Virus record (IMG/VR): IMGVR_UViG_3300010397_000044 | Coordinates: 14,735 to 78,734 of that record | Strand: one strand, 5' to 3' | From: a virus | DNA length: 64,000 nucleotides | Shown here: positions 12 through 55,930 of the stretch, one piece after another | Position numbering within the stretch: position 1 is the stretch's first letter | Layout of the letters: each line of letters opens with the position of its first letter | Made by a program: the position numbers and the translations under genes | Notes under the pieces: generated by a model | Told to the model about the DNA's origin: nothing | The model's input: only the letters and a program-made list of their open reading frames with translations | Database searches by the model: none

Positions 12-221
12 ATGCGAAGGTTCACATTAAAACAAGATTATCAGGGATTCTATAAAGGAACTATCTTTGTCGGCCCAATATTCGCCACCGATACTCAACG
101 ACCAGCTTTTTACAGAGAGCAAGACGTAGAAGACCGAAAGGATAAAATCTACTATTACGCCTCTCATGTAACAGATAACCCACTTATTTTTGAAGAAATT
201 AAAACAGAAGAGAAACAATGA
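12..221 (+). CDS. hypothetical protein (69 aa)
   Basis: ORF with A-rich leader; ATGA overlap with the next gene. Confidence 0.6.
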   Translation: MRRFTLKQDYQGFYKGTIFVGPIFATDTQRPAFYREQDVEDRKDKIYYYASHVTDNPLIFEEIKTEEKQ

Positions 222-2681: not shown

Positions 2682-3497
2682 ATGGGAATTAATAGCAATT
2701 TTTTAAGCAGCGGAAACGCTGGTGACGCTATCGGAGCTTTGCCGGCCATAAGAGAATTTTACAGAAAAACAGGTATTAAGCCAACCCTCTACCTTAGAAA
2801 AGGGGTAGAAGCCTTCTATTACGAAGGCGCTGTTCATCCCGTTAAAGACCCAGAAACACAAAAAAATGTAATGCTCAATCAGAAAATGATTGACATGCTA
2901 ATTCCTTTGTTGAAATCACAATCGTTTTTGGAGGATGTAAAGACATATGCCGATGAAGAGATAGGGTGTGATTTGGACCAAATTCGGGAAACCAACGTAG
3001 GAATGCCCGGATTGAGCCTGAACCGTTGGTATTTTTATGTATATCCTGATTTGGCTTGTGATCTTTCAAAACCATGGCTAGAAGTACCTGATGCCGAAAA
3101 AGACTTAGCCAAAGGAAAGATTATCATTACCCGAACAGAACGTTATACGAATCCAAATATAGACTACTCTTTCCTCAAACCCTACGAAGATGAATTGATC
3201 TTTTCCGGAACCATGCGAGAGTATAACAACTTCTGTATGGGCTACGATCTCAATATAAAAAAACTGACGGTTGATAACTTTCTAACGTTGGCCCAAGCCA
3301 TAAAACAGTCCCGATTTCACGTGACTAACCAAACCATGGCCAACCAAATTTCGACCGGATTATGTCATCCATCCATATTGGAAGTGTGTACGTTTGCCCC
3401 TAATTGTATCCCAATTGGGGAAGATAGATACGACTTTCTCGCACAGAAGGGGCTTGAATATTATTTCGATGTATTGCATAAAAAAACCGCCCAATAA
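2682..3497 (+). CDS. glycosyltransferase, GT-B/GT9-like
   Basis: GNAGDAIGALPAIRE N-terminal motif; LAQAIKQSRFHVTNQT resembles the GT9 C-terminal motif. Confidence 0.6.
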   Translation: MGINSNFLSSGNAGDAIGALPAIREFYRKTGIKPTLYLRKGVEAFYYEGAVHPVKDPETQKNVMLNQKMIDMLIPLLKSQSFLEDVKTYADEEIGCDLDQIRETNVGMPGLSLNRWYFYVYPDLACDLSKPWLEVPDAEKDLAKGKIIITRTERYTNPNIDYSFLKPYEDELIFSGTMREYNNFCMGYDLNIKKLTVDNFLTLAQAIKQSRFHVTNQTMANQISTGLCHPSILEVCTFAPNCIPIGEDRYDFLAQKGLEYYFDVLHKKTAQ

Positions 3498-5586: not shown

Positions 5587-5595
5587 AATTTAACA

Positions 5596-5865
5596 ATGGC
5601 AACTATCAAAGCTACCAATGATTGGGTATTTATAGAACAGGATAAGAAAACAACAGAGTCTCATGGATTTACATTGCCGGATGCCTCAAAAGAAAAGCCA
5701 AGCGCCGGGATAATTGTTTCCATAGGCAGGCTTGTCAAAGACCCAGACATTAAGGCGGGGAAGGGGAAAAGGGCTTTATTTCATAAAGGAACCGGCTTTT
5801 CGATAAACTTTGAAGGCAAAGACTACCTTGTCATTCAGTCTGGGAATATAATCGGTGTTTCATGA
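5596..5865 (+). CDS. groES: co-chaperonin GroES
   Basis: IKATNDWVFIE, GFTLPDASKEKPSAGIIVSIG, EGKDYLVI..NIIGV; directly after groEL. Confidence 0.9.
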   Translation: MATIKATNDWVFIEQDKKTTESHGFTLPDASKEKPSAGIIVSIGRLVKDPDIKAGKGKRALFHKGTGFSINFEGKDYLVIQSGNIIGVS

Positions 5866-31015: not shown

Positions 31016-31522
31016 ATGGCGTTAAGCCCCTCATTTACTCTTTCCGGGACATCTGATCCAAGTTCCCTGACCCTGACCGATACTAGTACCGGAACGGATG
31101 GCGCGGTCGTCGGCAGAAAGATAAATCTTTACGACGTTTCAAATAATTTATTTGGATCATCTCCCTACGATTTCCCCAACTTCCCTGGCACGACCTCAAT
31201 TACCATAAATCCTTTTTTAAAGGATAAATCCATTAACGTTGTTGTTACATGGGTTGACAATGTGGGAACCGTATTATATACCGCGTCTAAAATCTATGCT
31301 TCAACTGGATATGGGGAACAATTTTATTCCGGGCTCACAAGAAATTTAACCTCTCAGCCGGGTATAGCCAATGATCAACAATTCAGGGAGAACTTTAGTT
31401 GGTTGAGAACGCTGTTAGATTCAACCGTACTAGCCATCAATAACATGCAGGATATTATAGCAGCCCAAAACTGTATAGATCAATATAACGGAATGATTCA
31501 AAATCAAAACGATTTCTTCTAA
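31016..31522 (+). CDS. putative tail hub / fibre-docking protein
   Basis: SSLTLTDTSTG N-terminal beta domain with helical C-terminus; start of the fibre operon. Confidence 0.45.
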   Translation: MALSPSFTLSGTSDPSSLTLTDTSTGTDGAVVGRKINLYDVSNNLFGSSPYDFPNFPGTTSITINPFLKDKSINVVVTWVDNVGTVLYTASKIYASTGYGEQFYSGLTRNLTSQPGIANDQQFRENFSWLRTLLDSTVLAINNMQDIIAAQNCIDQYNGMIQNQNDFF

Positions 31523-32391
31523 TGGCATCTGAAAGAACACCAGCACAAATTTCATTAATTGCAGCCATCTGTCAAACGTTGGCCGTTAATGATCGTGCAT
31601 TTCAGAATGCCGTAAAAGGGTTTGCTTTGGATCAACGGTTAGCTCGTTACATCTACATGAACAGAAGGTCTTTGGATTATGTTCTTTCTGTAAATCCGTC
31701 CGACACAACCTTGCAGGCAATAGCTAATTACGTTTATGCCCTATGTTCACCATATATAGCGAGAGCGCAGCAAATTATAAATAACCTGCAAGTGGGATTG
31801 CCCGTATTAACGGGACCGACAGACCAAAGTACAACGGTTGGCAATAGCGCAACGTTTTCAGTTAGTGTGTCCGGAACAGGTCCGTTTATGTACCAATGGT
31901 ATGTAGGCGGAGTGGTTATTGCCGGAGCAACAAGTGCATCATATATAAAAAGTAATGCACAGTTGTCGGATGACGGTAAATTATATTCGGTGCAAGTTAC
32001 TAATGTCGCTGGTTCAGTGTTTAGTGGAACGGCAAAATTAAATGTTACATCTGCATATGTGGCCTTCTATTACTATGGTGATGTAGATTATAGTAGTGAT
32101 TTAATGTCTGGCAATGATAGCGTACCCTATTTGGGAACATTCCCGGTCACGGCTGGGCAACCATTGAGCTTTACATGGCCTTCAGGAGCGGCGAACAATA
32201 AATACATAGTTGTAAAATATCCGGGGGCAGAATCCGTTAAAACGCAATACTCTAATCTGCCTTTGAATAACGGGCTTATACCCAGTATAGCCTTTGAAAA
32301 TGTCTCAACAATAGGATCATTTAAATACATATTCAGTCGAGGAGGAAATCCTTTCTCGATGAATACGGCAAATGCATTAATTTTTAGTTGA
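31522..32391 (+). CDS. tail protein with Ig-like domain
   Basis: PTDQSTTVGNSATFSVSVSGTGPFMYQWY...DGKLYSVQVTNVAGSV (I-set Ig pattern). Confidence 0.75.
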   Translation: MASERTPAQISLIAAICQTLAVNDRAFQNAVKGFALDQRLARYIYMNRRSLDYVLSVNPSDTTLQAIANYVYALCSPYIARAQQIINNLQVGLPVLTGPTDQSTTVGNSATFSVSVSGTGPFMYQWYVGGVVIAGATSASYIKSNAQLSDDGKLYSVQVTNVAGSVFSGTAKLNVTSAYVAFYYYGDVDYSSDLMSGNDSVPYLGTFPVTAGQPLSFTWPSGAANNKYIVVKYPGAESVKTQYSNLPLNNGLIPSIAFENVSTIGSFKYIFSRGGNPFSMNTANALIFS

Positions 32392-32408: not shown

Positions 32409-35400
32409 ATGGCCCAAGCAGAAGGAAGGAGGTTGAAGAATAAATATCTTCCCCTCTTTCTGACAATAATTCTAGTATTTATATATACGGTTTCGTTTTC
32501 ACAAACGTTTAACCCATCTCTTCACGTCGTCGTTAATTCAGCAATAGGGGAAGCTCAAGCAGCGCCACTGGATGCTCGTAGTATGTTTTATGATACGTCA
32601 AATTTTAGGTACCGCGCCTACCAAAATACTTCAGAAGTAAAATCATACTTAAATCTACCCAAATACAGATTCGGCAACTTTCTTATCGTTGTAGACTCAG
32701 GGGGAATATTGCAGCCAAATGGAACATATGTCGGTGGAGTTAATACATTTTGGATGTTTAGGGATTCCACCGCAGATGCTAATTTAGTTAAACTCAACCT
32801 GACGGGAAGTTCGGGACCTTGTGTGGGCTGTCTTTTAGCTGCTAATAACCTAAATGATGTTGCTAATAAACCGACAGCATTATCTAATTTAGGAATTGGG
32901 AGCATGGGTTTATTAAGTTCAACCGCAAGTGGAGATTTGAATGGCATTTGGCCCAATATTACAGTTCAGCGTTTTAATAATCAATTGCCGGCCTATTATC
33001 TAAATTATAATAACCTAACCAATCAACCCGTAATCCCTGCTCAAATAAACATTACAGACGCTGGTCTTTTCACGCATACCGGCACCTACCCTAACCTTAC
33101 CTTTAATTCCAGGACTCCCGGATTCGAGGAGACTATAATTCAAAATAATGCATTATCGGGAGATAGAACTATAAACGGGGGAGCTTTTAATCTTTTGATT
33201 AGTGGCACGGGGGCGTTGGGAATTCCTGTTGGCACAACTGCGCAACGTCCATCATCCCCAGTTACTGGAATGTTGCGTTTTAATACAGACTCTCTGAAAA
33301 AGGAAACTTACAATGGGAGCACATGGGTAAGCGATGGAACGGGCGGCGGAGGCGGGGGTAGCGGGATTACCGCCTTAACAGGAGATGGAACAGCTTCAGG
33401 AACGGGATCGGTTCCCTTTACGTTGGCAACTGTTAATAGTAACGTATTCGGGTCTAATACATTTTTGAAATTTGGAGTAAATGGGAAGGGCCTCGTTACT
33501 TCGGCGACTGCTGTAGTGAGCGGAGACATTACCAGTGCATTAGGGTATACCCCGTATAATTCAACAAACCCAGCTGGTTACATAACCGGTAATCAGTCTA
33601 TTTCTTTTACCCCCAATGCAGGCGGAGACGTTACGGGATCGTCTTCGGGAACAACTTCTTTAACCCCTACACTTACGATAGGTAATAACAAGGTGACTTA
33701 TGCTAAGATTCAAGCAGCTTCCGGAGCAGCCTTATTAGGAGCAACAGGAGCAGGTAATTATCAAGAAATAACATTAGGAACGGGCCTCTCTTTTGCGGGA
33801 TCGGTTCTTAATGCAGCACCCGGCGGGGCAACAAACTCAAATATTGGTGCTGGTTTCCGTTGGGCCGTTCCCTCAACAAACAATATCAAGACTGCTTTCG
33901 GAAGCGCATTTATAGCATACGACTCAACCACTAACACTAATGCTTTAACAGCAAAGATAGCCAATGGAACGCCTAATTATCTTTTAGGGTGGGATGGGTC
34001 TGGCAATCCAGCAGCATTAAAACCAGATACACTTTTTTATGCCCAGTTAGGTCAACCCGGAGATTCTGTTGGATGGATAAACTCTCTTGGAGTGATTAAT
34101 TTTAGATTAATGCGAGATTCGCTATCATTTCATCACATAACAAATCCAGATGGGAGCTGGACTTTTTATTCTGCTGCAACTGGTGATTCTGGTATTGTAG
34201 CCGGATATGGTATTTCTGTAAGTAGAATAGCCGCTAATAATAGAATTGTATTTGCAGATACTTCTATTCCAAATGGAATAGCGCCGCGTCACGTTGTGAT
34301 AGATACCGCATTTAATAGATTTGTGCGTACAGATTCTGTCAATATAAGATTCAGAAACCCTGACTTTAATACACAGCAAATATATTTAGATGCTGGAGTA
34401 GTAGCTGGGGTGTTTTACTATGACAACACGGATATAACCACAGCGGATGACAGCGTAATGACCTTCGTTACAAATCAAGGCAAAAGATGGAAGAGGTTAA
34501 TCACTACGCCGTATATAAATGTAAAGTGGTTTGGTGCGCTGGGTAACGGGGCGCATAACGATATACCCAATATTACCAAAGCTATAGCATGGTTAAATAA
34601 CAATACTAATAGCCCTACAAGAGTATTGTATTTCCCGTCTGGCAATTATGTTATTAATAGTCCAATCATTGTGGCTAGATTTAATGGCACAACATATTCT
34701 CAGGTTAATATGACATTGATGGGTCAGGCAAACGCTAAAAATTCCCCATCTCAATATACATCTGTAATTACTCCTACATTCAATAATACATTTGCAATAG
34801 GTATTCAATTAGGAAAGGGGTGTAATATAGAAAACTTTAAAATATCCGGGCAATTCTCTTTCCCGAATACTCTAAGTAATATTAGTGTTGATACATTAAC
34901 TGAAGCTCAATGGACAGACGGATCGGCACGACAAAATACAGTTACTCCATATGCCGGTATCGCTATTGATCCATTTTCCGACTCTTTATCTTATACCTCA
35001 AATTCGGATTTATATCCGGGACTTCATTCTTATTGCCCTGCTGGATTACCAAGGGCTGGTAGTACAGATATAAACATCAAAAACTGCAATATAACTCAAT
35101 TCATAGTTGGGGTCATATTGTCTCCATCCAATCAGCAAAATGCTGACGAAATAAACATGGATCAAGTTAATATAGGGGGCAATAAAGTAGGATTCGCATT
35201 TTGTCAATCTCAATCTAAAGATTGTAATGTAACAAGGTTTATGGCTTGGGCACCAGTCTATAGCATATTTGATAATGCTACCTACGGGATTAGACATGGT
35301 GATGGTGCTGGTTCGCCAAATATAAATGGCGGCAACATAGCTTCTCAGGTATATCAGCTGGGTTATATGAATGGGCAATCGTTTAGGGGAGGAATATATA

Positions 35401-38400
35401 ATGTATATGCGGAGGGGTTATTCAAATTGGGGTCATGGGTTGGTCAAGCCGGCTATATATTCGAAAATTGTGATTTCAACTTTGCGACTAATGCATCAAA
35501 TATCCCCTATCCTGACTTCTTTATATTTGCTGATAATGTAGAAATGGTAAATTGTCAAAATAGATTCTATGGCAATGTGCCTACGCGTATGATATTTACT
35601 GGAAGCCAAGTTAAATTTAGAGGTGGCACCCTAAATGCAGCGCCTTTCGTGGCGTCAATGAGCTGTTGCAATACTTCTCAAACTCCCACATTTGATAACG
35701 TTAGACTTTTTTATTCTCCGGGAGGGGTAATAGGTAGAAATAGGCCCACAAATCCATTTAATACGAATGGCGTAATGAATGGATTAATGTCTGCCGTGGC
35801 GGGTGGAACCGATCCAATATATCCTCAGAGTAATCAATCTGATATATATACTTTCAAGTATAGTGGATCATGGGATAGAACGGTCCCATTGGGAACCAAA
35901 GCTATTACAACTAATAGAACTACATGGAGTGGTTATTTTGTTTCAACTGCTGGCGATAGTACAAAAATAAGAGTGGGTGATTTTCTGGTAACCAATAATG
36001 CAAAGCCGGTCGGTCAATCAAGCACCGTTGCGACTACATCAATGCCTATAGGCTTCATATCAAAAATATCTAATGATACGGTTTACTTTAATAATCTGGC
36101 AACAGAAATAAAAGATAGTGCATATACTATTTGGGCTGGATACGCAGTCAATAATAAAGATGCATTTACAGGAAGCATGGTAAGCGGCCAAAAGTATATT
36201 ACCAAAGTAATTACAGCCAATGGTAATTCTTTGGCAACTTTCTTTTCAATTGGAGAACGATTTGATTTGCCACAATTTGCATTAGGTACTTATGTAACAG
36301 GGGTCGGTAACGATACTGTCTATCTTTCAAATGTCGCCAATGCTACAAATCCGGAATATACATGGATGAATGGATTCCCATCTATTGAAATATGGAGTCC
36401 GTCTACCCCGGAGACTTTTACGCAGTCAAGTCAAAAATTGCCACTATATGGAGGAGCAATATATCACAAATCAATCGCAACTTGTTGTTCTTTTTTATAT
36501 GCCGCCCATTATGGGGACGCGTATAAATCATATAAAATATTAAATTCAAACTTTTTTGGAGATACCATCATTCACAAAGTGAAATATTCTCCAATAATAG
36601 AGGATGTTGGCGGTATGACAATTGCTAAAGGAACTACAGCTCAATTGTTCAACCCTAATTATACTACGCCATTAATAAGGATTAATAGTGATAGTACTTT
36701 GAACGGGTTTTCACATGCAACTATTACGGACGGAAGTATAACCAGACAGCTTGCCTATCTGAATGATTTAACAATTGCTACTGATACGACTATACTATCC
36801 ACAAGAAATAATGTAAATAGGGTTAGAGACTCCCTATTAGGTGTTTTGGTTAAAAATTTAGGGGGAGCCGTTGGGATATCCAGTGGTCCTTACTTATCGA
36901 GGCCCTCGGCTTCTAATTCGCAAAGATTCTATTGGTCTACTGATTCTGTATTTTACTCCTACGATAACGGGACTTGGAATGATATCCGAACCGCCGCAGG
37001 AGGCAATAATTCTTTTTTAAATATTCAGGCAAATAGTTTAGGTACTACCCAAGACCCTTCAAAAGGTATTTTAATAAACAACTTAACTGCTGCTGCTGCT
37101 GGCGCACAGCAAATATCTCCGGGTCTTGTATTAGAGGGGCAAGGATGGAAAACGAATGCCACAGCTGCATCCCAATCAGTTAAATTCAGAATGGATGTTA
37201 CACCTATACAAGGAGCAGCTGCGCCTACGGGACAATTTAAAATAGGCTCCTCTATAAATGGTGGCGCATATGCCGATAAAATAACCATTAATTCGGATGC
37301 GATTGGCGGCATATTTACATCCGCCGGATTACAAATGAATGGAGCGGGCCTAAATTTTTCAGGCGGAGGTACTGTTGCCCAGCAAATGACAGTTGGGGGT
37401 GCATGGACATTCAACTATTCCAGCGGACTGGCTTCAAATGCGAACGCATGGACAATGACTCATGCAACCGGCGTGTATACCTCCGGCACTTCCAGCAATC
37501 TGAGAGTCTTAGGTACATATAACCCGCCGTCTGGTACTGGTGAATACAATGCCGCCTTTATTACACCTACTATCAATCAGACGGGGGGGGCAAATGGAAT
37601 TACCAGAGGATTATATATCTCCCCTACTCTCACATCCGCTGCTGACTTTAGAGCGTTAGAAATTACGACTGGCCAATCTATTCTTGGGGGCTCACTTACT
37701 GTCAAGTCAATCTCTACAGGCTCCGGAACGGACTCTGTTTTAGTTGAAAATGGAGGCCTTATAAAAATGGTAGCTCAATCATCCTTGGGAGGGTCTAATA
37801 TCTACAATGCAGACGGAGCCTTGACGGCCAATAGGACACTTTCCGGTGCAACATTTTCTCTTGCATTAGGCACAAGTGGCAGTAAGATTGGTGGTTTATC
37901 CATTAATTCGAATGGAACGACCATAAGCAGTGGTATATACAATAGCGCAGGGGGATCACAATTATTACTGGCCGCCAGCACTATTAATAATGCGATAACT
38001 ACAGGCGGGGGAACAGTTAGCGACTTCTCTGCATATTTTTTCAGGACGCCAACAGTCACTAGTACAAATGCTGTAAACTATTCTCACGCAGCAACGGTAA
38101 GGATTGAAAATTCCCCCACAATGGGAACCAACTCCACGGGGACTAATCAATTATATGCATTAGATGTTGCTGCCGGTATATCCCACTTTGGGGTAGGTAA
38201 TTCCAACATATCAGCTTGGTTCGATGGAGTAATAGGGGTTAGTGCGCCACCAAATAGCACAATACTACTTGGGATAGGGGCATCTTCTTCTAGTGTAACT
38301 TCTATGTACCTTACACCGGGAGCAGATGTAACAGGAAGCCTTTTGACACAAAGCGGAGACTTGTGGAATAACGGGACTAATTTATATTTTGTCGATGGGT

Positions 38401-38714
38401 CTTCTTCAGGTGTGAAAAGAGATTTATTGAATGAAGGAACGTCTATAACAGAGAGCTCTGCGGGTACCTTAACCTTAACTCAACAATACACTGATTTCAT
38501 ATTTACTGGCACCACTACTACATGGACTTTGGGGGCATTAGCGTCTAATTTCAATAGAACTATTCATATTAAAAATGCAGGCAGCGGAAACATCACTTTG
38601 AACAGAGCAGGGAGTGACCAAATTTACGACGTAAGTGCTGTCACAAGTATAACAATAACGCCGGGAACAGCAAGAACCTTAAAGGGTGGTGCAGCTTTTT
38701 GGTATGTAGAGTAA
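32409..38714 (+). CDS. tail fibre/tailspike with pectate-lyase-like beta-helix and N-terminal signal peptide
   Basis: PLDAR, LAANNLNDVANKPTALSNLG and GTTAQRP..GMLRFNT fibre motifs; INVKWFGALGNG..ND..I.KAI beta-helix start; signal peptide KNKYLPLFLTIILVFIYTVSFS/Q. Confidence 0.75.
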   Translation: MAQAEGRRLKNKYLPLFLTIILVFIYTVSFSQTFNPSLHVVVNSAIGEAQAAPLDARSMFYDTSNFRYRAYQNTSEVKSYLNLPKYRFGNFLIVVDSGGILQPNGTYVGGVNTFWMFRDSTADANLVKLNLTGSSGPCVGCLLAANNLNDVANKPTALSNLGIGSMGLLSSTASGDLNGIWPNITVQRFNNQLPAYYLNYNNLTNQPVIPAQINITDAGLFTHTGTYPNLTFNSRTPGFEETIIQNNALSGDRTINGGAFNLLISGTGALGIPVGTTAQRPSSPVTGMLRFNTDSLKKETYNGSTWVSDGTGGGGGGSGITALTGDGTASGTGSVPFTLATVNSNVFGSNTFLKFGVNGKGLVTSATAVVSGDITSALGYTPYNSTNPAGYITGNQSISFTPNAGGDVTGSSSGTTSLTPTLTIGNNKVTYAKIQAASGAALLGATGAGNYQEITLGTGLSFAGSVLNAAPGGATNSNIGAGFRWAVPSTNNIKTAFGSAFIAYDSTTNTNALTAKIANGTPNYLLGWDGSGNPAALKPDTLFYAQLGQPGDSVGWINSLGVINFRLMRDSLSFHHITNPDGSWTFYSAATGDSGIVAGYGISVSRIAANNRIVFADTSIPNGIAPRHVVIDTAFNRFVRTDSVNIRFRNPDFNTQQIYLDAGVVAGVFYYDNTDITTADDSVMTFVTNQGKRWKRLITTPYINVKWFGALGNGAHNDIPNITKAIAWLNNNTNSPTRVLYFPSGNYVINSPIIVARFNGTTYSQVNMTLMGQANAKNSPSQYTSVITPTFNNTFAIGIQLGKGCNIENFKISGQFSFPNTLSNISVDTLTEAQWTDGSARQNTVTPYAGIAIDPFSDSLSYTSNSDLYPGLHSYCPAGLPRAGSTDINIKNCNITQFIVGVILSPSNQQNADEINMDQVNIGGNKVGFAFCQSQSKDCNVTRFMAWAPVYSIFDNATYGIRHGDGAGSPNINGGNIASQVYQLGYMNGQSFRGGIYNVYAEGLFKLGSWVGQAGYIFENCDFNFATNASNIPYPDFFIFADNVEMVNCQNRFYGNVPTRMIFTGSQVKFRGGTLNAAPFVASMSCCNTSQTPTFDNVRLFYSPGGVIGRNRPTNPFNTNGVMNGLMSAVAGGTDPIYPQSNQSDIYTFKYSGSWDRTVPLGTKAITTNRTTWSGYFVSTAGDSTKIRVGDFLVTNNAKPVGQSSTVATTSMPIGFISKISNDTVYFNNLATEIKDSAYTIWAGYAVNNKDAFTGSMVSGQKYITKVITANGNSLATFFSIGERFDLPQFALGTYVTGVGNDTVYLSNVANATNPEYTWMNGFPSIEIWSPSTPETFTQSSQKLPLYGGAIYHKSIATCCSFLYAAHYGDAYKSYKILNSNFFGDTIIHKVKYSPIIEDVGGMTIAKGTTAQLFNPNYTTPLIRINSDSTLNGFSHATITDGSITRQLAYLNDLTIATDTTILSTRNNVNRVRDSLLGVLVKNLGGAVGISSGPYLSRPSASNSQRFYWSTDSVFYSYDNGTWNDIRTAAGGNNSFLNIQANSLGTTQDPSKGILINNLTAAAAGAQQISPGLVLEGQGWKTNATAASQSVKFRMDVTPIQGAAAPTGQFKIGSSINGGAYADKITINSDAIGGIFTSAGLQMNGAGLNFSGGGTVAQQMTVGGAWTFNYSSGLASNANAWTMTHATGVYTSGTSSNLRVLGTYNPPSGTGEYNAAFITPTINQTGGANGITRGLYISPTLTSAADFRALEITTGQSILGGSLTVKSISTGSGTDSVLVENGGLIKMVAQSSLGGSNIYNADGALTANRTLSGATFSLALGTSGSKIGGLSINSNGTTISSGIYNSAGGSQLLLAASTINNAITTGGGTVSDFSAYFFRTPTVTSTNAVNYSHAATVRIENSPTMGTNSTGTNQLYALDVAAGISHFGVGNSNISAWFDGVIGVSAPPNSTILLGIGASSSSVTSMYLTPGADVTGSLLTQSGDLWNNGTNLYFVDGSSSGVKRDLLNEGTSITESSAGTLTLTQQYTDFIFTGTTTTWTLGALASNFNRTIHIKNAGSGNITLNRAGSDQIYDVSAVTSITITPGTARTLKGGAAFWYVE

Positions 38715-38727
38715 GAAATTTATAAAC

Positions 38728-39159
38728 ATGAAATATATATTTGGAGCCATATTAGCATTGGGGGTTGTTTTTGCAAGCTGGTTTGCATATGATCCTTCTG
38801 TTAGGATGACAATGAATAATGCCCCGGGGCGTACATTGTCAACCACGGGAAGCAATAACACATTCACTATAAGTACCACAAAGTGTACATCGGTTGCTTA
38901 TACTGTTAATTTCAGTGCTGCGCTTACTTTGGGAACTAGTAATGGGCGTGTTCAATTGGATGTGAGTTTAGATGGGGGATCAAATTGGATAACTATTTCA
39001 AGCGTGTCTCAGGTATTCGGTGTTTCAGTAACCATTACAACCAATCAAGATTTAGTCCTTGCCGGCATGGTGCCAGCTAACGCTTTAGTTCGAATATACA
39101 GAATAAACAATGCAGGAGTTACCGTTACGTTAGGTTCACAGCAGGAATGCACAATGTAA
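38728..39159 (+). CDS. exported beta-rich protein (143 aa)
   Basis: MKYIFGAILALGVVFASWFA signal/anchor followed by Thr/Ser/Val-rich beta strands. Confidence 0.6.
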   Translation: MKYIFGAILALGVVFASWFAYDPSVRMTMNNAPGRTLSTTGSNNTFTISTTKCTSVAYTVNFSAALTLGTSNGRVQLDVSLDGGSNWITISSVSQVFGVSVTITTNQDLVLAGMVPANALVRIYRINNAGVTVTLGSQQECTM

Positions 39160-39172
39160 AAAATAGATTCAC

Positions 39173-40150
39173 ATGATAAAATACATTTTAGGTCTTTGTT
39201 TGCTCGTAAAAGGATTTATAGGGGAGAGTCAAACTTTTGTCAAAAAGGTGGGTGATATAGTGGGAAATCAAACCGTCATAAGCGTTCCTGTTGCGACCGG
39301 TAGCCCAACAAAGCAAGCACTTATTTACTACCCGGATGATTATTTTAAAGACACTACAAAAACCTTCCCCGTATATTTTTTCTTACACGGCGCTGGGGAG
39401 GCAGGTACAGATATAACAAAAGTTACGAACACCTCGTTGCCTAGTCTTATTAAGGCAGGATTGAAGCCGTATAATATCGTAGGAAAAGATACAATAAAAT
39501 GGATAGTTATTAGCCCGCAGTGTAGTGAACCCGGGGGGAATTGTAGTTATTCGTGGCCTCAACTTAGGTACACCATCCCATATTGCTTGCAGAAATTCAG
39601 GATAAATAAGAACTGTGTTTGGGGCGGTGGCTTGTCTATGGGGGGCTCAGCTACTTTCTCTTTAGGAATGGCAGATACAGGATGGACTATGACTTACATG
39701 ACTGGGTTAATGCCATTTTCTAATGCCGGATGGGATGATAATTTAGCCAAGTATGGCCCCAATCTTGCCTATTGTTTGAAGAAAGGATTGGCTGTGCTAT
39801 ATGTTATCGGAGATCAGGATCCCGGCTGGAACCCTAATGCATTTGGGGCGTATGATAAATTGATGAGCGCAAATGCCCTCCCCGGTCTTTATAGAGATAG
39901 CGTAATAAAAGGTGGTACACATAGCGCTAATGTTTGGAATACACCGTTCCCTTTTACGTCTCGCCTTTGGTCTAAAACCCAAAATTCATGGGATTTAATG
40001 TGGTCTTTCCGAAAAAACGCCAATGTGGTTGCGCCTCCGCCGGTCGTGATACCGCCCCCAACTAACCCACCTGCATCATTGCCTTATCCGGTTCGTATTG
40101 TAGTGAAGTACAGTGATAGTTCTTGTCAAATAATTTACATGAAACCATGA
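39173..40150 (+). CDS. exported alpha/beta-hydrolase (esterase-like)
   Basis: PVYFFLHGAGE; nucleophile elbow GLSMGG; GDQD; GGTH; signal peptide ending ES/Q. Confidence 0.8.
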   Translation: MIKYILGLCLLVKGFIGESQTFVKKVGDIVGNQTVISVPVATGSPTKQALIYYPDDYFKDTTKTFPVYFFLHGAGEAGTDITKVTNTSLPSLIKAGLKPYNIVGKDTIKWIVISPQCSEPGGNCSYSWPQLRYTIPYCLQKFRINKNCVWGGGLSMGGSATFSLGMADTGWTMTYMTGLMPFSNAGWDDNLAKYGPNLAYCLKKGLAVLYVIGDQDPGWNPNAFGAYDKLMSANALPGLYRDSVIKGGTHSANVWNTPFPFTSRLWSKTQNSWDLMWSFRKNANVVAPPPVVIPPPTNPPASLPYPVRIVVKYSDSSCQIIYMKP

Positions 40151-41784
40151 GGGTACTAATATTCCTGCTAATATGCATTGGGATTCTAAGCTTCAAGATA
40201 GCTAAGGATAGGTATGTAGAATATAGAGATTTTAAGCGCATGTACGCCGGTATATACGTTACCAAAGTTGCAGCGGCAGAATATTTGGTTGCTTATCTTT
40301 ATAGCGATAGTACGGTAAGAGCCTATATAAATGACGTTGGGGCATCAGTGCATTTCATTCCTTATGTATTTGGAGGTAGAAAGGCTATAGATGTTGCCCC
40401 AGCTTTCAACCATGTCATGATTTTGGATGATCAGCATTACGTTTGGAGAAATACCCCGTCCGGGACGCCAGCAGGACCAGCATGTACAAGATATGATACA
40501 GATACAGCAGGAAATCAATTCAATTATTCTTATAAACTATATGCGTATTTCGATTGCTACCTAACAACAACGCAAAATAACGATTCATTAATTTATTGGG
40601 CCACTACCGATGGTCTTAGATGGATAGACGGTACCGGCACAAGAACCTGCAAGCCCTTCCTTATTTGGCAACCCCCGTCCGGAAGAACGATTAAGAAAGT
40701 GGCAATGGGGTTGACCGTGTCTGTATTGCTGGATAATGGGGATGTATACGAAAGGGGAACTGGCGGTAGCTCTTTTGCTAAAGTAACGCTTCCGGCTGGA
40801 TCATATTGTACAGACGTGTATTGTTCATACAAAGATTTTAGGACATACATTCTACATAATTACGCTGGTGGGGACCCTACCTTGGGGGTTCTCGCTTGGG
40901 CTGGTTCTCGATCAGGATTCTTTGGAGATAACCAATCAAGATCAAGTCCTTTCATTCTGTCATGGCCTTTCCCTAATCACCTAAAGATGTTAGGTGGTGA
41001 TGATAACACGGCAATTATGATAGATTCAGCCGGAAGGATGTGGGGAAATGGGGACAATCCACAAGGAGAAGTAGGTAACGGATCAGAGATAGTAAATAGG
41101 TATGATTATCATAACTTTTGCTGTTATACGCCCTATGCATGGTCAACTGATGAAGGACAGAACCCTGTTGCTCCGGCTGTTGAAATAGGAATTGGACAGA
41201 CGTGGAAATATATAGCTGATGAAAAAGGATTTGCCTTCCATCACTTCGCCATTACAACTAACGATTCATTGTATAGATGGGGGCGTAGTAAAAGCTTCGA
41301 CTTATGGCCATACGCCTCCAATAATGAAGCCACATATCCAAATAATTGGGACATTCTATCTCCCACTCAATACACTCTTTTAGCTACTCCAACTGGGTCG
41401 TATATCACATTCATTTTACCAAGAGTTCATTGTGTGGCAGGACAGCCAACCAATTCAACCGTATCGACTAGTACAAGCAGCATAAGCCTTGGGGGGCTGG
41501 ATACGGCTAATTTTTCTGGCCCCGTAGGTTATTCAATCTCATCCTATCAATGGAGTCTGAAAACCAAACCGGGCAGTGCGCCAAATCCTACCTATACATC
41601 TGCCACATCCCAGACTACTACGATAAACGGATTACAGAATGGTCAATACCAATTTTATAAGAAAATGACAGATAATAACACCGGTATTTGGGCCGACAGC
41701 GTTACCGTAAATGTGAATATCGTATCTGGTTGCGGGGGATGTACGGTTTTAAAACAAGTGAGAACCTTCAAAAGAGTGCCCTAG
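40147..41784 (+). CDS. exported RCC1/BLIP-II-like beta-propeller protein with C-terminal PKD-like domain
   Basis: Start MRVLIFLLICIGILSF; GRMWGNGDNPQGEVGNG RCC1-type repeat; ISSYQWS..TTINGLQNGQYQF..TDN..ADSVTVNV. Confidence 0.65.
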   Translation: MRVLIFLLICIGILSFKIAKDRYVEYRDFKRMYAGIYVTKVAAAEYLVAYLYSDSTVRAYINDVGASVHFIPYVFGGRKAIDVAPAFNHVMILDDQHYVWRNTPSGTPAGPACTRYDTDTAGNQFNYSYKLYAYFDCYLTTTQNNDSLIYWATTDGLRWIDGTGTRTCKPFLIWQPPSGRTIKKVAMGLTVSVLLDNGDVYERGTGGSSFAKVTLPAGSYCTDVYCSYKDFRTYILHNYAGGDPTLGVLAWAGSRSGFFGDNQSRSSPFILSWPFPNHLKMLGGDDNTAIMIDSAGRMWGNGDNPQGEVGNGSEIVNRYDYHNFCCYTPYAWSTDEGQNPVAPAVEIGIGQTWKYIADEKGFAFHHFAITTNDSLYRWGRSKSFDLWPYASNNEATYPNNWDILSPTQYTLLATPTGSYITFILPRVHCVAGQPTNSTVSTSTSSISLGGLDTANFSGPVGYSISSYQWSLKTKPGSAPNPTYTSATSQTTTINGLQNGQYQFYKKMTDNNTGIWADSVTVNVNIVSGCGGCTVLKQVRTFKRVP

Positions 41785-42015
41785 ATGGAAAAGGAATTTC
41801 TTCAATACGGAGTATTGGGAATGGTGGCAGTGGGGTTAAGTTGGTTCATTATGTATCTTATAAAGGATCATAGAAAAGAGAGAAAAGAATGGAGGGAATT
41901 TCAGGAAAAGCAAATGGATAGAATAATGGAACAAGGAGATGAGAGTAACAAAGTAATAAGAGAACATTCTAATCTATTATCAGGAATAAAAGCCTTACTC
42001 GAAAACCGTAATTGA
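41785..42015 (+). CDS. holin-like membrane protein (1 TM plus coiled coil)
   Basis: LQYGVLGMVAVGLSWFIMYLI then charged coiled coil (BhlA-like architecture). Confidence 0.55.
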   Translation: MEKEFLQYGVLGMVAVGLSWFIMYLIKDHRKERKEWREFQEKQMDRIMEQGDESNKVIREHSNLLSGIKALLENRN

Positions 42016-42016
42016 A

Positions 42017-42319
42017 ATGGGTAATTTTATAGTTACTGAAATCCTATTTGGCATTGTATGGATCATTGGAGCCTTGGTATTAAGGGAGTTTGTTATCTCC
42101 AAGGATGGAATGCTTAGAAAGATCATGATTGCCTATTTCGCCGTGGAAGTATTCACCTATTTGGGAGCGGCTATTTACTTTCTGGCCATAGAAGAAAAGT
42201 GGTCGGATATGTCGATTAACACATTCAGAATAGTTGTAATTACTCCAAAAGTTTTTGTTAAATTGTGGTTACTTTGGTATCTTAAATCCGGTAGAAAAAA
42301 GCTAAAATCCTCAATATGA
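42017..42319 (+). CDS. membrane protein (3 TM), lysis cassette
   Basis: Three hydrophobic segments and a basic C-terminus. Confidence 0.55.
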   Translation: MGNFIVTEILFGIVWIIGALVLREFVISKDGMLRKIMIAYFAVEVFTYLGAAIYFLAIEEKWSDMSINTFRIVVITPKVFVKLWLLWYLKSGRKKLKSSI

Positions 42320-42666
42320 GCCCCTTCTTGGAAGAATTATTGGGCAAAAACAACCAGCCGGGTGTTATGCTGGCTGCATTCGTTTTCGCCCTCATTGGTC
42401 ATGCTATCGTATTATTGGGTGGAACCATGCTTAGGGTACCTAAGTCGCCCGATAGCCCCGAAAAGTTTTCCCTCTCTTATCTTCTCTACGACAACGCTAA
42501 ACGTATTCTTTATGTCCTGCTGCTTATAGTGGTAGGCATTCGCTTTTTACCAGATTTCACAGGGATGCAGGTAACCGGATGGGGAGGTTTTTTAGTTGGG
42601 TCTGGTTTGGACATCATCGCACTTGTAATTAAGCAACGGACCAAACTGTTAGACCCCAAATCTTGA
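42316..42666 (+). CDS. putative holin (3 TM)
   Basis: Hydrophobic segments with a basic tail, within the lysis cassette. Confidence 0.5.
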   Translation: MSPFLEELLGKNNQPGVMLAAFVFALIGHAIVLLGGTMLRVPKSPDSPEKFSLSYLLYDNAKRILYVLLLIVVGIRFLPDFTGMQVTGWGGFLVGSGLDIIALVIKQRTKLLDPKS

Positions 42667-43334
42667 AAACTTTTGCACGATATGGTATTGTAACGGTTGT
42701 GGCTCTTCTATGCTTTTGGTTTTGGCTTCAGAAGTGCAATAACGTTCCCGGGCCAGATCATACCCAAGACAAGGTATTTGTAGATAGTGTCACCAATATG
42801 GTAAAGGGGAAGTTGGCCGAATTTCAGCACGTCTATGATTCGGTGAAGGCCGCCAATGTGGTATTGCAGAAAGATAAGGATAGCCTTGTAGGAGTAGTAG
42901 CCGCATATAAAATAGACCTCAAATCCAAAGGCAACGATATTCAGGATTTAATAAACTCATTAGACGAATCAGAGGACGCCAAGGACACGCTCCGACAGCT
43001 TACCTTATGTGATAGCCTCAAAGGCCAATTCGCTTCAGCCAAGGGGCTAGTAGGGGCCTATATCCACGCAAACGATAGCCTTTCAGCCCTCAATAACCAG
43101 ATCATAACTTCAAAGGATGCCATCATAGGCCGGTTAAACGGTATGTTCACGGATGCCAATAATTCCCTATTTCAGGTAGGGTTAAAATATGACCAATTAT
43201 ACGCAGATTATAAACGATTAAACGTCAAGCCAAAAAGATTTGGTATTGGGCCTTCAATTGGGTATTATGCTACCCCGAACGGATTAAAACCGGGCCTTGG
43301 CATATCTTTTACGTTTAGTATAATTAAATTCTGA
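42663..43334 (+). CDS. putative spanin-like protein
   Basis: N-terminal TM, long coiled coil, C-terminal amphipathic beta strands ending in Phe. Confidence 0.5.
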   Translation: MKTFARYGIVTVVALLCFWFWLQKCNNVPGPDHTQDKVFVDSVTNMVKGKLAEFQHVYDSVKAANVVLQKDKDSLVGVVAAYKIDLKSKGNDIQDLINSLDESEDAKDTLRQLTLCDSLKGQFASAKGLVGAYIHANDSLSALNNQIITSKDAIIGRLNGMFTDANNSLFQVGLKYDQLYADYKRLNVKPKRFGIGPSIGYYATPNGLKPGLGISFTFSIIKF

Positions 43335-44298: not shown

Positions 44299-44436
44299 AT
44301 GTTGTATTACATTGGGGGATTGATTATAGTATTCGGGGTTGGATTTTTTATAGGCGCAAATAACCCTCCGCGCCAAATCTTGCAAAAATTATTGAACAAG
44401 CACAAAGATTCCATTGATAAAATAATGAAAAGCTAA
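44299..44436 (+). CDS. small membrane protein (45 aa)
   Basis: MLYYIGGLIIVFGVGFFIGANN...; TAATG coupling to the endolysin. Confidence 0.55.
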   Translation: MLYYIGGLIIVFGVGFFIGANNPPRQILQKLLNKHKDSIDKIMKS

Positions 44437-44900
44437 TGGACGAAAGATCATTAAAGGAACTTAATACACTCCATCCTAAATTTAGGCAATCAGCTATAGA
44501 TGCATGGACAGAGGCCCAAGCCGCAATGCCAGACAATGTGAAGATTGTAGTAACTCAAGGATTGAGAACATTTGAGGAAAGCGATAAGTTATACGCTCAA
44601 GGAAGAACAGCGCCGGGGCCAAAAGTTACTAATTCCGCTGCTGGGCAATCTTACCATAATTATGGGCTGGCCTTCGATTTTTCAATGATAACCAATGGAA
44701 AAACAGATTGGGTGCTTGGGCCTAATTGGATGAAAGTAGTTGAAATCATGAAAAAGCATGGAATGGCGTGGGGTGGTGATTTCAAATCAATAGTTGATAA
44801 TCCACACTTTGAAAATCGGTTTGGCTTTAATTGGCGACAATTGCTGGCTAAACACAAAGCGGGAGACTTTATCACCGGCACACAATACGTTAATATTTAA
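44436..44900 (+). CDS. endolysin, M15 family L-Ala-D-Glu peptidase
   Basis: QGLRTFEESDKLYAQGRT, SYHNYGLAFD, WGGDF..D.PHFE. Confidence 0.92.
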   Translation: MDERSLKELNTLHPKFRQSAIDAWTEAQAAMPDNVKIVVTQGLRTFEESDKLYAQGRTAPGPKVTNSAAGQSYHNYGLAFDFSMITNGKTDWVLGPNWMKVVEIMKKHGMAWGGDFKSIVDNPHFENRFGFNWRQLLAKHKAGDFITGTQYVNI

Positions 44901-54449: not shown

Positions 54450-55234
54450 CGATGCATTACTAAATATTGCAAACAAATGATGCATTATTCATAAAAAATA
54501 CCCATTTACATGAACAGCCCCCCCCCCCCTCACCAACCAATATCTCATCCCTGACCAACCAATCGCCCTCAATCAATTACACAACACATTGAAAAACAGT
54601 TTGCCGCTGGCTCATATCACTTTTCCAAACCAATGACAACAGTCATAACAACCAATCCAATCTCGTTTGGCCGATCAAAAACTTTAGGCCGGCCCTCAAT
54701 TTAAGCCCGTTTTCGCCCTGGCGATTGACCCCGACACAAACCTGCGTCCAACCCCCGATCCTGCCTCTATGGGCCTGTAATGGCTTTATAGCCCACAAAA
54801 CAGTTGCTTGCGAACCAAGGCCAAAGACCTTCCTTGAAATTCATTTCTTTTTCTGCCGTGGTTTTAAACGGCGGATTCACGCCACCCGGTCTAGGAACTT
54901 GACTTGCCCAAGGGCGCGGCCTCGCTCTAAAGGACGGGGGTATCCAGCGAAGGAGAGCCCATAGCTTTGTTGTTTTTCTATTTAGGCGGGGATTGGTATT
55001 GCTTTTCTAAAACGGGCTGTATTTGGCTTAAAATGCGTCTGGTTTGATTCCGAAAACCAAAAGTTCGATGCCGCCGGTTGATTCTAGCGGAAATTCCCCC
55101 GGCCGGAAGGGCCGCCCCGTTTGTTGCGTTGGACACCTGAATACGCTTGTGTGGACCTTTCTCCTAATTTTTGGGTTTGTTGGGGGTAAGTGGGTATAAA
55201 TTAGCGCCGCTTGGTATATGTCGTAGCGAGTAAT

Positions 55235-55242
55235 TACATTTG
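55235..55242 (+). promoter_or_regulatory. -7 promoter (TACATTTG)
   Basis: Exact consensus, 12 nt before the XRE gene. Confidence 0.6.
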
Positions 55243-55253
55243 CTAAAAACACC

Positions 55254-55607
55254 ATGCAAACATTGGGAGAACTTTTAAAGGTTGGCCGGGAAGGTCAAGG
55301 GTTCACATTAAGGCAAGTTGAGGAGGCGACGGGGGTATCAAATGCCTACCTAAGTCAGTTGGAAAACGGGAAGATTAAACGGCCATCGGCTAATGTCTTG
55401 TATAAGCTGGCGCAGATTTACAAAATGACTTTGGACGAACTGTTGAAGGCCTCCGGGATGATCGTGGTCAAGCAGCCGCCTGAGGTTGTCGTTGTGAATA
55501 ATAAAGCACTTGGTCCTATGCTGATTACCGACGACGAGGAATCGCAGCTTTTGGAATACCTTAGATGGCTTCGTTTTAAAAAGCAGCAAAAGTTCCCCAT
55601 CGTGTAA
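55254..55607 (+). CDS. XRE-family HTH transcriptional regulator
   Basis: TLRQVEEATGVSNAYLSQLENGKIKRPS..LYKLA. Confidence 0.92.
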   Translation: MQTLGELLKVGREGQGFTLRQVEEATGVSNAYLSQLENGKIKRPSANVLYKLAQIYKMTLDELLKASGMIVVKQPPEVVVVNNKALGPMLITDDEESQLLEYLRWLRFKKQQKFPIV

Positions 55608-55663
55608 GTGGGTAGTTTTAGTCGGTTATTCGGAAATTCCGAAAGGGTGCTATATCTTGGTCA

Positions 55664-55930
55664 CGAATAGTTGGTGATCGCTTTTTGAAAAACTGTTTGG
55701 ACAAGGGTTCGAATCCCTTCACCTCCACCGCTTCAGCCATTGGGTTGAGTATTGCCGGCCGCCTTGAGTAAGCGGCCATTTTGGGGGTGCCCGGTTTTGA
55801 CAGCAGCCTAGTAGGATTGCAGGAGATTATTCGAAACAACAAAAGACAAAGGTGTAATACCTTTCGGTGGCGGCTTCATGAAAGCTGCGGCCTAACGTGA
55901 CTGGCCCCCAACGATATCGGGGGCTTTTTT
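55664..55930 (+). ncRNA. ssrA: circularly permuted (two-piece) tmRNA
   Basis: Acceptor piece (T-arm AAGGG-TTCGAAT-CCCTT, CACCTCC-A at 55720-55727) lies before the 5' piece GGGGGTG at 55783; G3-U70 pair; tag frame 55845-55895 DKGVIPFGGGFMKAAA*; terminator 55903-55930. Confidence 0.88.

Follow-up and report, generated by a model that had tools for sequence, protein, structure and literature searches.

Tailed-phage assembly is taught as a purely cytoplasmic affair, and a tail fibre gene that opens with a secretion signal raises the question of where such a fibre matures and how it could come to join the particle. The gene in question belongs to a 79-kb crAss-like phage of the Bacteroidota, of which a window of 64,000 nt was analysed (all positions given here are those of this window). 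A preliminary description of the locus had proposed that the phage sends its fibre and the products of the following genes through the host's Sec pathway, where they are glycosylated, and then adds them to virions during or after lysis or displays them on the infected cell. This interpretation is partly supported by the present analysis. Maturation of the host-recognition apparatus very probably takes place outside the cytoplasm, because the fibre and the genes after it carry a signal for secretion and, about three times as often as chance would have it, a motif for sugar attachment; together they would make up a secreted module for host recognition and glycan cutting. Addition of the fibre during or after lysis, or its display on the infected cell, is plausible on indirect grounds (synteny, homologues without a signal in the same slot, and signal-bearing proteins detected by MS/MS in virions of Cellulophaga phage phi18:3). 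The best explanation, which we hold with belief and doubt in about equal measure, is that the exported and glycosylated fibre module joins the virion after the inner membrane has been breached.

The virion plan of the phage is crAss-like (portal, MCP, ring proteins and a muzzle with a crAss_MUZ_C domain). The fibre gene is the last of the structural operon, following the muzzle, a giant protein, a tail protein and two partners of 168 and 289 aa, and the fibre module is followed immediately by the genes for holin, spanin and endolysin. Such a place, within the structural operon and adjoining the tail genes, is that of a tail fibre or tailspike gene. PhicrAss001 (PMC10172136), which shares both the virion plan and the muzzle with its crAss_MUZ_C domain, has the same layout, with a fibre gene block and then directly the lysis cassette. 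The features of the region are as follows.

31016-31522, + strand: conserved 168-aa partner gene without a signal; FN3-like sandwich with a helical C-terminus (synteny, AF2)
31522-32391, + strand: conserved 289-aa partner gene without a signal; central Ig I-set domain (synteny, domain search)
32409-38714, + strand: 2101-aa tail-fibre/depolymerase-like protein with 21 sequons (translation, sequon count)
32409-32501, + strand: fibre signal peptide, aa 1-31; basic, extended n-region with L-K-N-K-Y at its end, uncharged h-region and S-F-S, followed by Gln at +1
32502-32828, + strand: conserved mature N-terminal domain of the fibre, aa 32 to ~140, beginning Q-T-F-N-P-S; candidate virion-attachment domain
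33216-33368, + strand: fibre "collar" motif, also found in tail fibres without a signal from other phyla (PHROG 20787, virion structural protein)
34332-34703, + strand: start of the tailspike/depolymerase-like (pectate-lyase-type) region (tblastn)
38728-39159, + strand: 143-aa protein with an N-terminal hydrophobic signal or anchor and no sequons (PHROG 31472, function unknown)
39173-40150, + strand: 325-aa CE1-type (feruloyl-esterase-like) alpha/beta hydrolase; weak signal peptide ending E-S before Q, 3 sequons
40147-41784, + strand: RCC1-like beta-propeller plus PKD protein; N-terminal anchor or signal, sequons at 7 of 8 D-S/T sites
41785-42666, + strand: three small membrane proteins of 76, 100 and 116 aa; candidate holin-like members of the lysis cassette (hydrophobic segments)
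42663-43334, + strand: 223-aa DUF6808 protein with one N-terminal TM, i-spanin-like; sequons at 6 of 6 D-S/T sites
44436-44900, + strand: M15 peptidase endolysin without a signal peptide

The resemblance of the 2101-aa protein to known fibres and tailspikes is confined to short stretches. Residues 642-765 are 34-46% identical (tblastn, E 2e-7 to 8e-6) to fibre or depolymerase genes of Klebsiella, Salmonella and Xanthomonas phages, and the pectate-lyase-type region has a weak rhamnogalacturonidase match. The matches P0056-P0069 align to the collar motif only, which occurs also in "tail fiber domain-containing" proteins; long fibrous stretches are present as well. In a profile search the mature N-terminal domain defined a family of 619 clusters whose conserved part is only ~100 mature residues long (alignments A3 and A6) and whose C-terminal domains are exchanged (SGNH, BNR sialidase, pectate lyase, SASA, DUF5907). 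A conserved N-terminal anchor with exchangeable binding or enzyme domains is the organisation of a fibre, and we read the protein as a putative one. Mature residues 1-100 were modelled by AF2 with a pLDDT of 62-87, and a fold search with the model of the mature N-terminal domain gave no clear match; the model of the 168-aa partner (pLDDT 92) has FN3 matches at Z ~10. The synteny of the fibre holds in 12 loci, and in two different phage backbones the gene comes after the two conserved partners, which lack a signal.

Signals or anchors on the three genes after the fibre had also been described, and they are confirmed, those of the esterase and the propeller being weaker than that of the fibre in this genome. 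The 143-aa protein begins with a hydrophobic stretch of 17 residues that may be either. The esterase, which matches the PDB entries 1JJF and 6RZO (E 3e-5 to 1e-4), has a weaker h-region and then G-E-S before the Q. The propeller ORF opens at 40123 (40123-41784, 553 aa) and its real start is probably the ATG at 40147, with a 4-nt overlap with the esterase stop; its N-terminus is anchor-like from M9. Homologues of both proteins in related loci have clear signals with A before Q, as the propeller homologue in L010 illustrates. The position of the three small membrane genes is kept in related loci.

The adjoining lysis cassette and these CAZyme-like neighbours (CE1 esterase, RCC1/PKD) also fit free enzymes that act on the envelope. 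Exported and glycosylated, such proteins would never join the virion; periplasmic or released, they would attack the envelope glycans of the infected cell and thereby help progeny to leave the cell, remove receptors that would otherwise trap them on debris, or exclude superinfecting phages, while the particle would recognise its hosts by other parts, for example the muzzle, the 695-aa tail protein or the Ig-bearing 289-aa protein. The SGNH, sialidase, pectate lyase and SASA domains of the family are likewise typical of secreted glycan-degraders, and this arrangement poses no topological problem, whereas a fibre in the periplasm has no access to a particle in the cytoplasm before lysis, which argues against a virion role. 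Nonetheless, we consider it rather unlikely that the proteins stay off the virion: long fibrous stretches and the collar motif are common to ordinary tail fibres, the gene is locked to its two structural-looking partners in both backbones, and no second fibre-like receptor-binding gene was found in the genome.

The signal peptide and following Q that had been reported for the fibre proved canonical in form. Residues 1-13 include four K/R, the h-region counts 17-18 uncharged residues, and S-F-S precedes Q32, which is invariant in the family alignment A1. Nearly all family members have a variable signal peptide and then an invariant Gln. The 54 complete signal peptides are 18-31 residues long, with an uncharged run of 11-21 (median 16) and an n-region net charge of +1 to +6, mostly +2; position -1 is S (18), A (18), G (17), T (1) or P (1), hence S/A/G in 53 of 55, position -3 is A, G, S, V, T or L, and +1 is Q in all. 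Across ~60 homologues the signal varies freely in sequence and always keeps its n-h-c form, and among the best 150 of the 619 clusters almost every one has the domain starting between residues 18 and 34. The signal peptide is thus kept in the family, conserved in form and not in sequence. By charge, h-region, -3/-1 residues and Gln at +1, the fibre is a predicted substrate of Sec and signal peptidase I under the Q-rule of Bacteroidota signal peptides (PMC5837995, PMC10653852), and Sec routing with a cut before the Gln, as proposed earlier, is strongly supported by this comparative evidence. A lipoprotein processed by signal peptidase II was considered and rejected, there being no Cys in or after the signal peptide and Q at +1. 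No NCBIfam or Pfam match to a T9SS C-terminal domain was detected at E <= 0.01 in the four module proteins; a route to the cell surface would thus be missing, which counts against enzymes working freely on the envelope.

The second line of evidence concerns the sequon D-(S/T)-(A/I/L/V/M/T), which is the O-glycosylation motif of the Bacteroidota. The fibre has 21 sequons against 6.9 +/- 2.5 expected from composition shuffles (z 5.9), about three times chance, and 0 of 1000 shuffles reached 21, so that a Ser/Thr-rich composition does not explain their frequency. Among its 25 D-S/T sites 21 are sequons, a third-position preference with a binomial P of 8e-6, or 9e-7 against its own non-D S/T sites. 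D-(S/T)-non-hydrophobic is depleted (z -2.2), and ten control motifs, which include E/N/G/K/Q-(S/T)-hydrophobic, the reversed motif and D-(A/G)-hydrophobic, all have an absolute z below 1.7. The propeller has 7 sequons against 1.9 expected (P ~0.001) and the esterase 3 against 0.8 (P 0.035); the 1893-aa protein has 0 and the muzzle 2. All these observed sequon counts match exactly those of the preliminary description. Taken together, the genome's five exported proteins have 37 sequons against 11.0 expected (P 5e-10) and its other 59 ORFs 26 against 38.6. Sequons present above chance mark the fibre as a candidate substrate of general O-glycosylation, and selection for the host's motif is strongly supported as far as sequence can tell. 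A non-cytoplasmic location of the fibre is suggested by its signal peptide, which the sequon excess tracks. In the Bacteroidota the motif is enriched in non-cytoplasmic proteins, and engineered motifs become glycosylated, also across species (PMC12871550). The paired Cys residues that had been pointed out are present in the fibre (CxxC at 138/141, CC at 1086/7 and 1359/60), but the disulfide argument drawn from them carries no weight, since the Cys content is equal in exported and other proteins (10.8 vs 11.0 per 1000 aa).

Signal-bearing members of the family have 745 sequons against 288 expected and, in a second set, 1261 against 513 (~2.5x), with an excess of 2.67x in the shared first 400 aa and 2.65x in the unrelated, variable C-terminal parts. 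Seven signal-less members, a small control group of 22 D-S/T sites, have 15 against 17.6 expected (0.85x), a chance-level density that results from fewer D-S/T dipeptides. A comparison of 17 related loci gave 119 sequons against 46.9 expected in signal-bearing fibres, 142 against 48.1 in other signal-bearing proteins and 91 against 112.9 in signal-less proteins. The signal-less family members retain the hydrophobic third position at 15 of their 22 D-S/T sites, and this would suit a reading in which the N-terminal segment of the fibre is a structural helix or uncleaved tether rather than an export signal, the sequon excess being a feature of the fibre fold. That reading is very improbable: the segment is free in sequence and length, yet never lacks the n-h-c form, the small -3/-1 residues and the Q at +1; the excess is equal in non-homologous C-terminal domains and in unrelated signal-bearing neighbours; the control motifs are flat; and fibres of similar fold without a signal show no excess, neither gp22-gp26 of crAss001 (16 sequons against 13.0, chance level) nor the fibres of elemo, a cultured Bacteroidota phage. 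In L014 the same N-domain heads a signal-less, collagen-like, enzyme-free fibre in the equivalent gene slot (0 sequons against 2.3 expected). This protein and the seven other signal-less members are therefore not exported enzymes, which again speaks against a module that never enters the particle.

We thus return to the exported fibre that joins the virion. Export and host O-glycosylation of the fibre module are, to judge from these sequence patterns, likely. As a first step, in which we have high confidence, the precursor would pass through the host's Sec system, signal peptidase I would cut before the Gln, and the Gln would become pyroglutamate. If so exported, the fibre would very likely be loaded with glycans at its D-S/T-hydrophobic sites by the host's general O-glycosylation in the periplasm, because the motif is in excess and the glycosylation of such motifs in exported proteins is established; once the fibre is exposed outside the cell, these glycans may shield or mask it. 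Among tailed phages, glycosylated virion proteins are known from a mycobacteriophage, in which phage-encoded cytoplasmic glycosyltransferases modify capsid and tail proteins; there the process takes place in the cytoplasm, whereas here a host periplasmic system and Sec export are implied. As a third step, for which the chances given export are somewhat better than even, a fibreless particle built in the cytoplasm would meet the glycosylated fibre once the holin/spanin cassette breaches the inner membrane, and the conserved mature N-terminal domain would dock on the tail. The position of the gene, the signal-less homologues in the same slot and the analogy with Cellulophaga phage phi18:3 make attachment after the breach moderately probable.

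A divided fate of the protein would reconcile the signal peptide with ordinary cytoplasmic assembly. Export would be partial or timed, the cytoplasmic fraction entering virions with its signal retained or from an internal start and the exported fraction serving as a soluble enzyme or decoy. The depolymerases of other phages are known in soluble and virion-bound forms, and the extended n-region motif, conserved in 25 of 60 family signals, could modulate targeting. Against this, the fibre gene has no internal start codon near the cleavage site (Met does not recur before residue 59), conservation is highest at the free mature N-terminus, which points to the processed end as the functional one, and the strong selection on sequons shows that the exported form matters for fitness; we consider such a double destiny improbable.

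The virion attachment that we prefer finds its nearest analogy in phi18:3 (Pachyviridae, NC_021794.1), a cultured, distant relative (TerL 25% identity, E 3e-45; muzzle E 7e-11). Its gp085, gp086 and gp087 are three large proteins that each start with a signal peptide and Q, as here, and their genes lie just upstream of small membrane genes and an endolysin, like the present module. Their annotation as virion or tail proteins comes from MS/MS and argues against signal-bearing proteins being kept out of the particle, although their detection could reflect co-purifying material. They have no detectable homology to the present fibre and, unlike it, no sequon excess (1, 1 and 1 against 3.6, 3.2 and 3.0 expected); the record leaves their signal peptides unmentioned. 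In crAss001 the fibre docks by its N-terminus, residues 1-26 of gp22 (annotated polygalacturonase/tailspike) having been observed docked in the hub (PMC10172136). At the sequence level no homology that would point to a gp22-type docking on THA/THB was found here, with hhalign probabilities < 1% for the N-domain with gp22 and for the 168- and 289-aa partners with THA and THB.

The export half of the scheme has wider parallels. Bacteroidota substrates of Sec, the Q-rule and O-glycosylation (PMC12871550, PMC5837995, PMC10653852) combine a signal peptide, Gln at +1 and an enriched motif, as here; in contrast to the host's own non-cytoplasmic substrates, the present ones are phage-encoded and lie in a virion operon, and the word "phage" is absent from the text of the review PMC12871550. 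Phages of Porphyromonas gingivalis (PMC10367356) have genes fitted to host Sec and signal peptidase I with Gln at +1; they are small, of unknown function and read as host-surface modifiers, not fibres, and come with no sequon analysis. As Q-rule signals proposed for non-virion phage proteins they favour free enzymes, and so do the exported, phage-fibre-like adhesins of bacteria. The MAT fibres of Bdellovibrio bacteriovorus (PMC10769870) have such an exported, trimeric, phage-tail-fibre-like build with swapped tips that bind surface glycans; unlike the present fibre they are cellular proteins on the surface of a predator from a different phylum, and involve neither a virion nor an O-glycosylation motif. 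We found no published description of a Sec-exported, glycosylated fibre route in tailed phages and no precedent there for late extracytoplasmic attachment of a fibre.

If the fibre is indeed mounted in this way, its passage through secretion and glycosylation would be a new assembly step and lysis a part of morphogenesis. In many Bacteroidota phages of soil and rhizosphere, the parts that are most exposed and that determine host range would be coated with host glycans, which bears on how stable they are, on how defence systems and grazers recognise them, and on how fibres avoid adhering to the cell that makes them. These phages would depend on Sec, glutaminyl cyclase and O-glycosylation as host factors, and recombinant fibres from E. 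coli may lack needed modifications. That a large clade of Bacteroidota phages has Sec-secreted fibres with host O-glycans and pyroglutamate, mounted after the holin opens the membrane, is a tentative view, to which we lean slightly less than to its denial. The implied two-compartment assembly line, with otherwise complete fibreless particles and a host-type glycan coat on receptor-binding proteins, we entertain with the same slight reserve. Sequon excess and Q-rule signals could mark Bacteroidota hosts of uncultured phages from sequence alone, and phi18:3 offers a cultured system in which the export part is directly testable.

The fifth exported protein of the genome, the 223-aa DUF6808 protein, was absent from the preliminary description. 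It has 6 sequons against 0.7 expected, and its equivalents have 9 against 0.8 in L010 and 5 against 0.8 in L016; in cultured phages, gp27 of crAss001 has 4 against 0.3 and gp32 of elemo 3 against 0.7. Spanin-like periplasmic proteins are sequon-rich in all the phages compared.

The window covers the greater part of a phage genome, a single contig of 78,734 bp, that has a crAss-like virion block and whose nearest cultured relatives are the Flavobacterium elemo phages and the Cellulophaga phages (terminase identity about 25%). The 2101-aa tail-fibre/depolymerase-like protein, hereafter the fibre, lies between structural and lysis genes; Pfam and NCBIfam searches with it gave no family match and no T9SS domain.

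Gene order around the fibre (window coordinates where given)
Virion block: GroEL/GroES, portal, large terminase, major capsid protein, ring-size proteins, 1339-aa muzzle with crAss_MUZ_C domain
3' of the muzzle: 1893-aa giant protein, then 695-aa tail protein
Between the 695-aa tail protein and the fibre: signal-less 168-aa and 289-aa genes, both conserved
32409-38714 (+): fibre, 2101 aa
3' of the fibre, in order: 143-aa protein, CE1-type esterase, RCC1-like propeller with PKD domain
After the propeller: three small membrane proteins, 223-aa single-TM DUF6808 protein (42663-43334), more membrane proteins, M15 endolysin

The preliminary description had claimed an N-terminal signal peptide, then Gln, for the fibre, and the sequence bears this out: four K/R within 13 residues are followed by an uncharged stretch of 17-18 residues, S-F-S and then Gln. 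Gln at +1 conforms to the Q-rule of Bacteroidota signal peptides (PMC5837995, PMC10653852). Homologues lacking the signal had been named as the finding that would speak against this claim; when residues 1-330 were used as the query in a word-indexed search, about 50 large homologues on contigs of 45-86 kb and ten shorter ones were recovered, and a signal peptide stands at the start of nearly all of them. These signals vary freely in sequence and length (18-31 residues, with an uncharged run of 11-21), but position -1 is always S, A or G, position -3 a small or aliphatic residue and position +1 Gln. The sole strongly conserved part is the mature end: Q-T-Y-N-P-S and, after it, a domain of roughly 100 residues (the N-domain). 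A profile of this domain identified 619 clusters among 1.84 billion representatives, and among the best 150 of these, nearly all have it starting at residue 18-34. Such features, kept while the sequence drifts, form the pattern that a true cleaved signal peptide would leave, and export of the fibre is, on this reading, very probable.

An extended n-region ending in [LF]-x-[NDG]-[KRN]-[YF], immediately before the h-region, occurs in 25 of 60 family signals (homologues P0005-P0079), including that of the window fibre (window 32409-32447); the remaining signals have a plain MKK-type start. This motif is conserved although it is situated in the part that is cleaved off, and it is reminiscent of the extended regions in signal peptides of very large autotransporters.

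The fibre is also rich in the Bacteroidota O-glycosylation sequon, D-(S/T)-(A/I/L/V/M/T). The counts of the preliminary description all proved exact on recount, and the comparison with composition-shuffled sequences that it proposed places the fibre far above chance: 21 of its 25 D-S/T sites are sequons, the shuffles contain 6.9 +/- 2.5 and none of 1000 reaches 21. Since ten control motifs (among them those in which E, N, G, K or Q replaces D, the motif reversed, and D-[AG]-hydrophobic) all remained flat (|z| < 1.7), this excess is neither a Ser/Thr effect nor a beta-strand effect. The combination of D-[ST] with a non-motif residue next is depleted. Among the fibre's own S/T sites that lack a preceding D, 36% have a motif residue next; against that rate, 21 of 25 has P = 9e-7. 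The propeller protein contains seven sequons against 1.9 expected by chance, and the DUF6808 protein, which was absent from the initial list, has 6/6 (0.7 expected). Pooled, the five proteins predicted to be exported have 37 against 11.0 (P 5e-10), and the remaining 59 ORFs of at least 100 aa have 26 against 38.6. The paired Cys residues that had also been reported are present as described; as an argument for disulfide bonding they were dropped, Cys being as common in other proteins as in exported ones.

This relationship between signal and sequon extends well beyond a single genome. For the signal-bearing members of the fibre family the count is 745 sequons where chance predicts 288, and for 118 representatives taken as an independent set it is 1261 against 513; the excess is 2.67x in the common first 400 residues versus 2.65x in the C-terminal parts, which vary and are largely unrelated. 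Among 17 related loci, signal-bearing fibres (119 against 46.9) and other signal-bearing proteins of at least 150 aa (142 against 48.1) are enriched; signal-less proteins (91 against 112.9) are not. Natural controls are provided by seven family members that open directly with the N-domain, which have 15 sequons against 17.6, although such members are few, their D-S/T sites still favour a hydrophobic next residue (15/22), and their chance-level density arises because they have few D-S/T sites. A further signal-less homologue, encoded by a 95.7-kb phage in the same gene slot as the fibre (L014:9995-12019), is a 674-aa protein with collagen-like G-x-x repeats, the N-domain right after Met, a stop codon just 5' of the ATG and no sequon against 2.3; the next large gene of that phage (13364-17176) has both signal peptide and Gln. 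Signal-less tail fibres of other phyla have 198 against 232, and among cultured Bacteroidota phages neither gp22-26 of crAss001 (16 against 13.0) nor the elemo fibres have a signal or an excess. The sequon excess follows the signal peptide, and the natural controls agree. That the window fibre, which has both signal and excess, is not exported at all seems highly improbable.

The periplasm is where Bacteroidota glycosylate this motif, on non-cytoplasmic proteins, in which it is enriched over chance (PMC12871550; the enrichment in host proteomes is taken from a review). Exported proteins given engineered motifs acquire glycans at them, and glycosylation also works across species, the proteins of one being modified in another (PMC12871550). 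Under these established rules, a phage protein with 21 motifs should be glycosylated once it is in such a host's periplasm, and the sequon excess implies selection for this modification. If the fibre is exported, its glycosylation would be quite probable. Spanin-like single-TM proteins share the enrichment of the window's DUF6808 protein, namely crAss001 gp27 (L032:15094-15696; 4/4) and elemo gp32 (L035:30391-30936; 3 against 0.7), which suggests that lysis proteins of Bacteroidota phages may be host-glycosylated too.

Whether the exported protein is also the virion fibre involves a further step. We propose that Sec would export the fibre with cleavage before Gln, that the host would O-glycosylate it, and that the adjacent holin and spanin genes would breach the inner membrane, so that the fibre could dock through its conserved mature N-domain onto fibreless particles. 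To this whole sequence of events we give an even chance. The fibre gene is the last of the structural operon, it recurs together with the 168-aa and 289-aa genes, as a triplet, in two different phage backbones, and the order of fibres and then lysis genes is that of crAss001. A constant N-domain is joined to exchangeable enzyme or binding C-termini, the protein has a collar motif common to ordinary fibres plus a tailspike-like stretch, and no other fibre-like gene was found in the genome. On fibres that are plainly structural, such as the collagen-like homologue, the N-domain does its work without being exported. Against a virion role, periplasm and cytoplasm are separate until lysis and the neighbouring genes resemble secreted carbohydrate-active enzymes, as they might if all were exported as free enzymes that never become part of the particle; with the structural context on the other side, we regard this as a rather unlikely but substantial alternative. 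That the fibre has a dual fate seems less probable still.

Structural comparisons yielded no evidence for the docking step. When the N-domain was modelled with the 289-aa and 168-aa partners, complex prediction (score 0.05) spoke neither for nor against contact, and hhalign against crAss001 gp22, THA and THB (hub) gave no match. In the model of the first 300 mature residues, confidence was confined to 1-100; fold searches with the N-domain returned nothing clear (best Z 3.4; BFVD E > 0.03), and its look-alikes in the ESM Atlas all scored below 0.9 and were unusable. The 168-aa partner is predicted to be an FN3-like sandwich with helices and the 289-aa partner to contain an Ig I-set domain, folds that as modelled do not tell the role of either. 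Cultured phages were also searched by tblastn, and neither the N-domain nor the C-terminal 1400 aa, the propeller or a neighbouring signal-bearing protein gave more than trivial matches.

An analogous case is offered by Cellulophaga phage phi18:3, which is distantly related, as shown by TerL (E 3e-45) and the muzzle (E 7e-11). Its gp085, gp086 and gp087 (L034:2892-8584), just 5' of membrane genes and the endolysin, each have a signal peptide predicted to be cut before Gln and are annotated as virion or tail proteins 'based on experimental MS/MS proteomics analysis'; the record's annotation is silent on their signal peptides. They have no homology to the fibre and their sequons are below chance (1 each against 3.0-3.6). 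By analogy, phi18:3 supports the view that signal-bearing proteins can reach virions and says nothing on glycosylation. In the full texts searched, few of them from subscription journals, tail fibres that bear a signal or are glycosylated by the host are nowhere described; what comes closest is the proposal that Q-rule signal proteins, of unknown function, are encoded by P. gingivalis phages (PMC10367356).

A smaller phage type (37.8-kb contig) also has the 168-aa and 289-aa genes together with a signal-bearing fibre, right after the head genes (L015:8650-16087, L024); this cassette therefore moves between phage backbones.

GroEL (520 aa) lies with GroES at window 4024-5865, and phi18:3 and the elemo phages likewise carry GroES or GroEL. 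A host search in genome contigs gave no match to the fibre profile and, for GroEL, only one Nitrospirae MAG (38% identity). Just 5' of GroEL (window 218-3497), a Methyltransf_23 methyltransferase, a GT2 glycosyltransferase and two genes without Pfam match may form a glycan-tailoring cassette that could bear on the glycan given to exported proteins. ARAGORN called a tmRNA of 548 nt with its own tag peptide (window 55182-55729); read from the sequence alone, a compact two-piece tmRNA (window 55653-55930) is an alternative. Host-type signals occur on further small phage proteins (46882-47235, 48847-49023(-), and window coordinates -12928 and -1521), one ending in S-K-A|Q, another in V-Q-G|Q and one with the lipoprotein lipobox L-V-S-C; host export would therefore serve several non-structural phage genes too.
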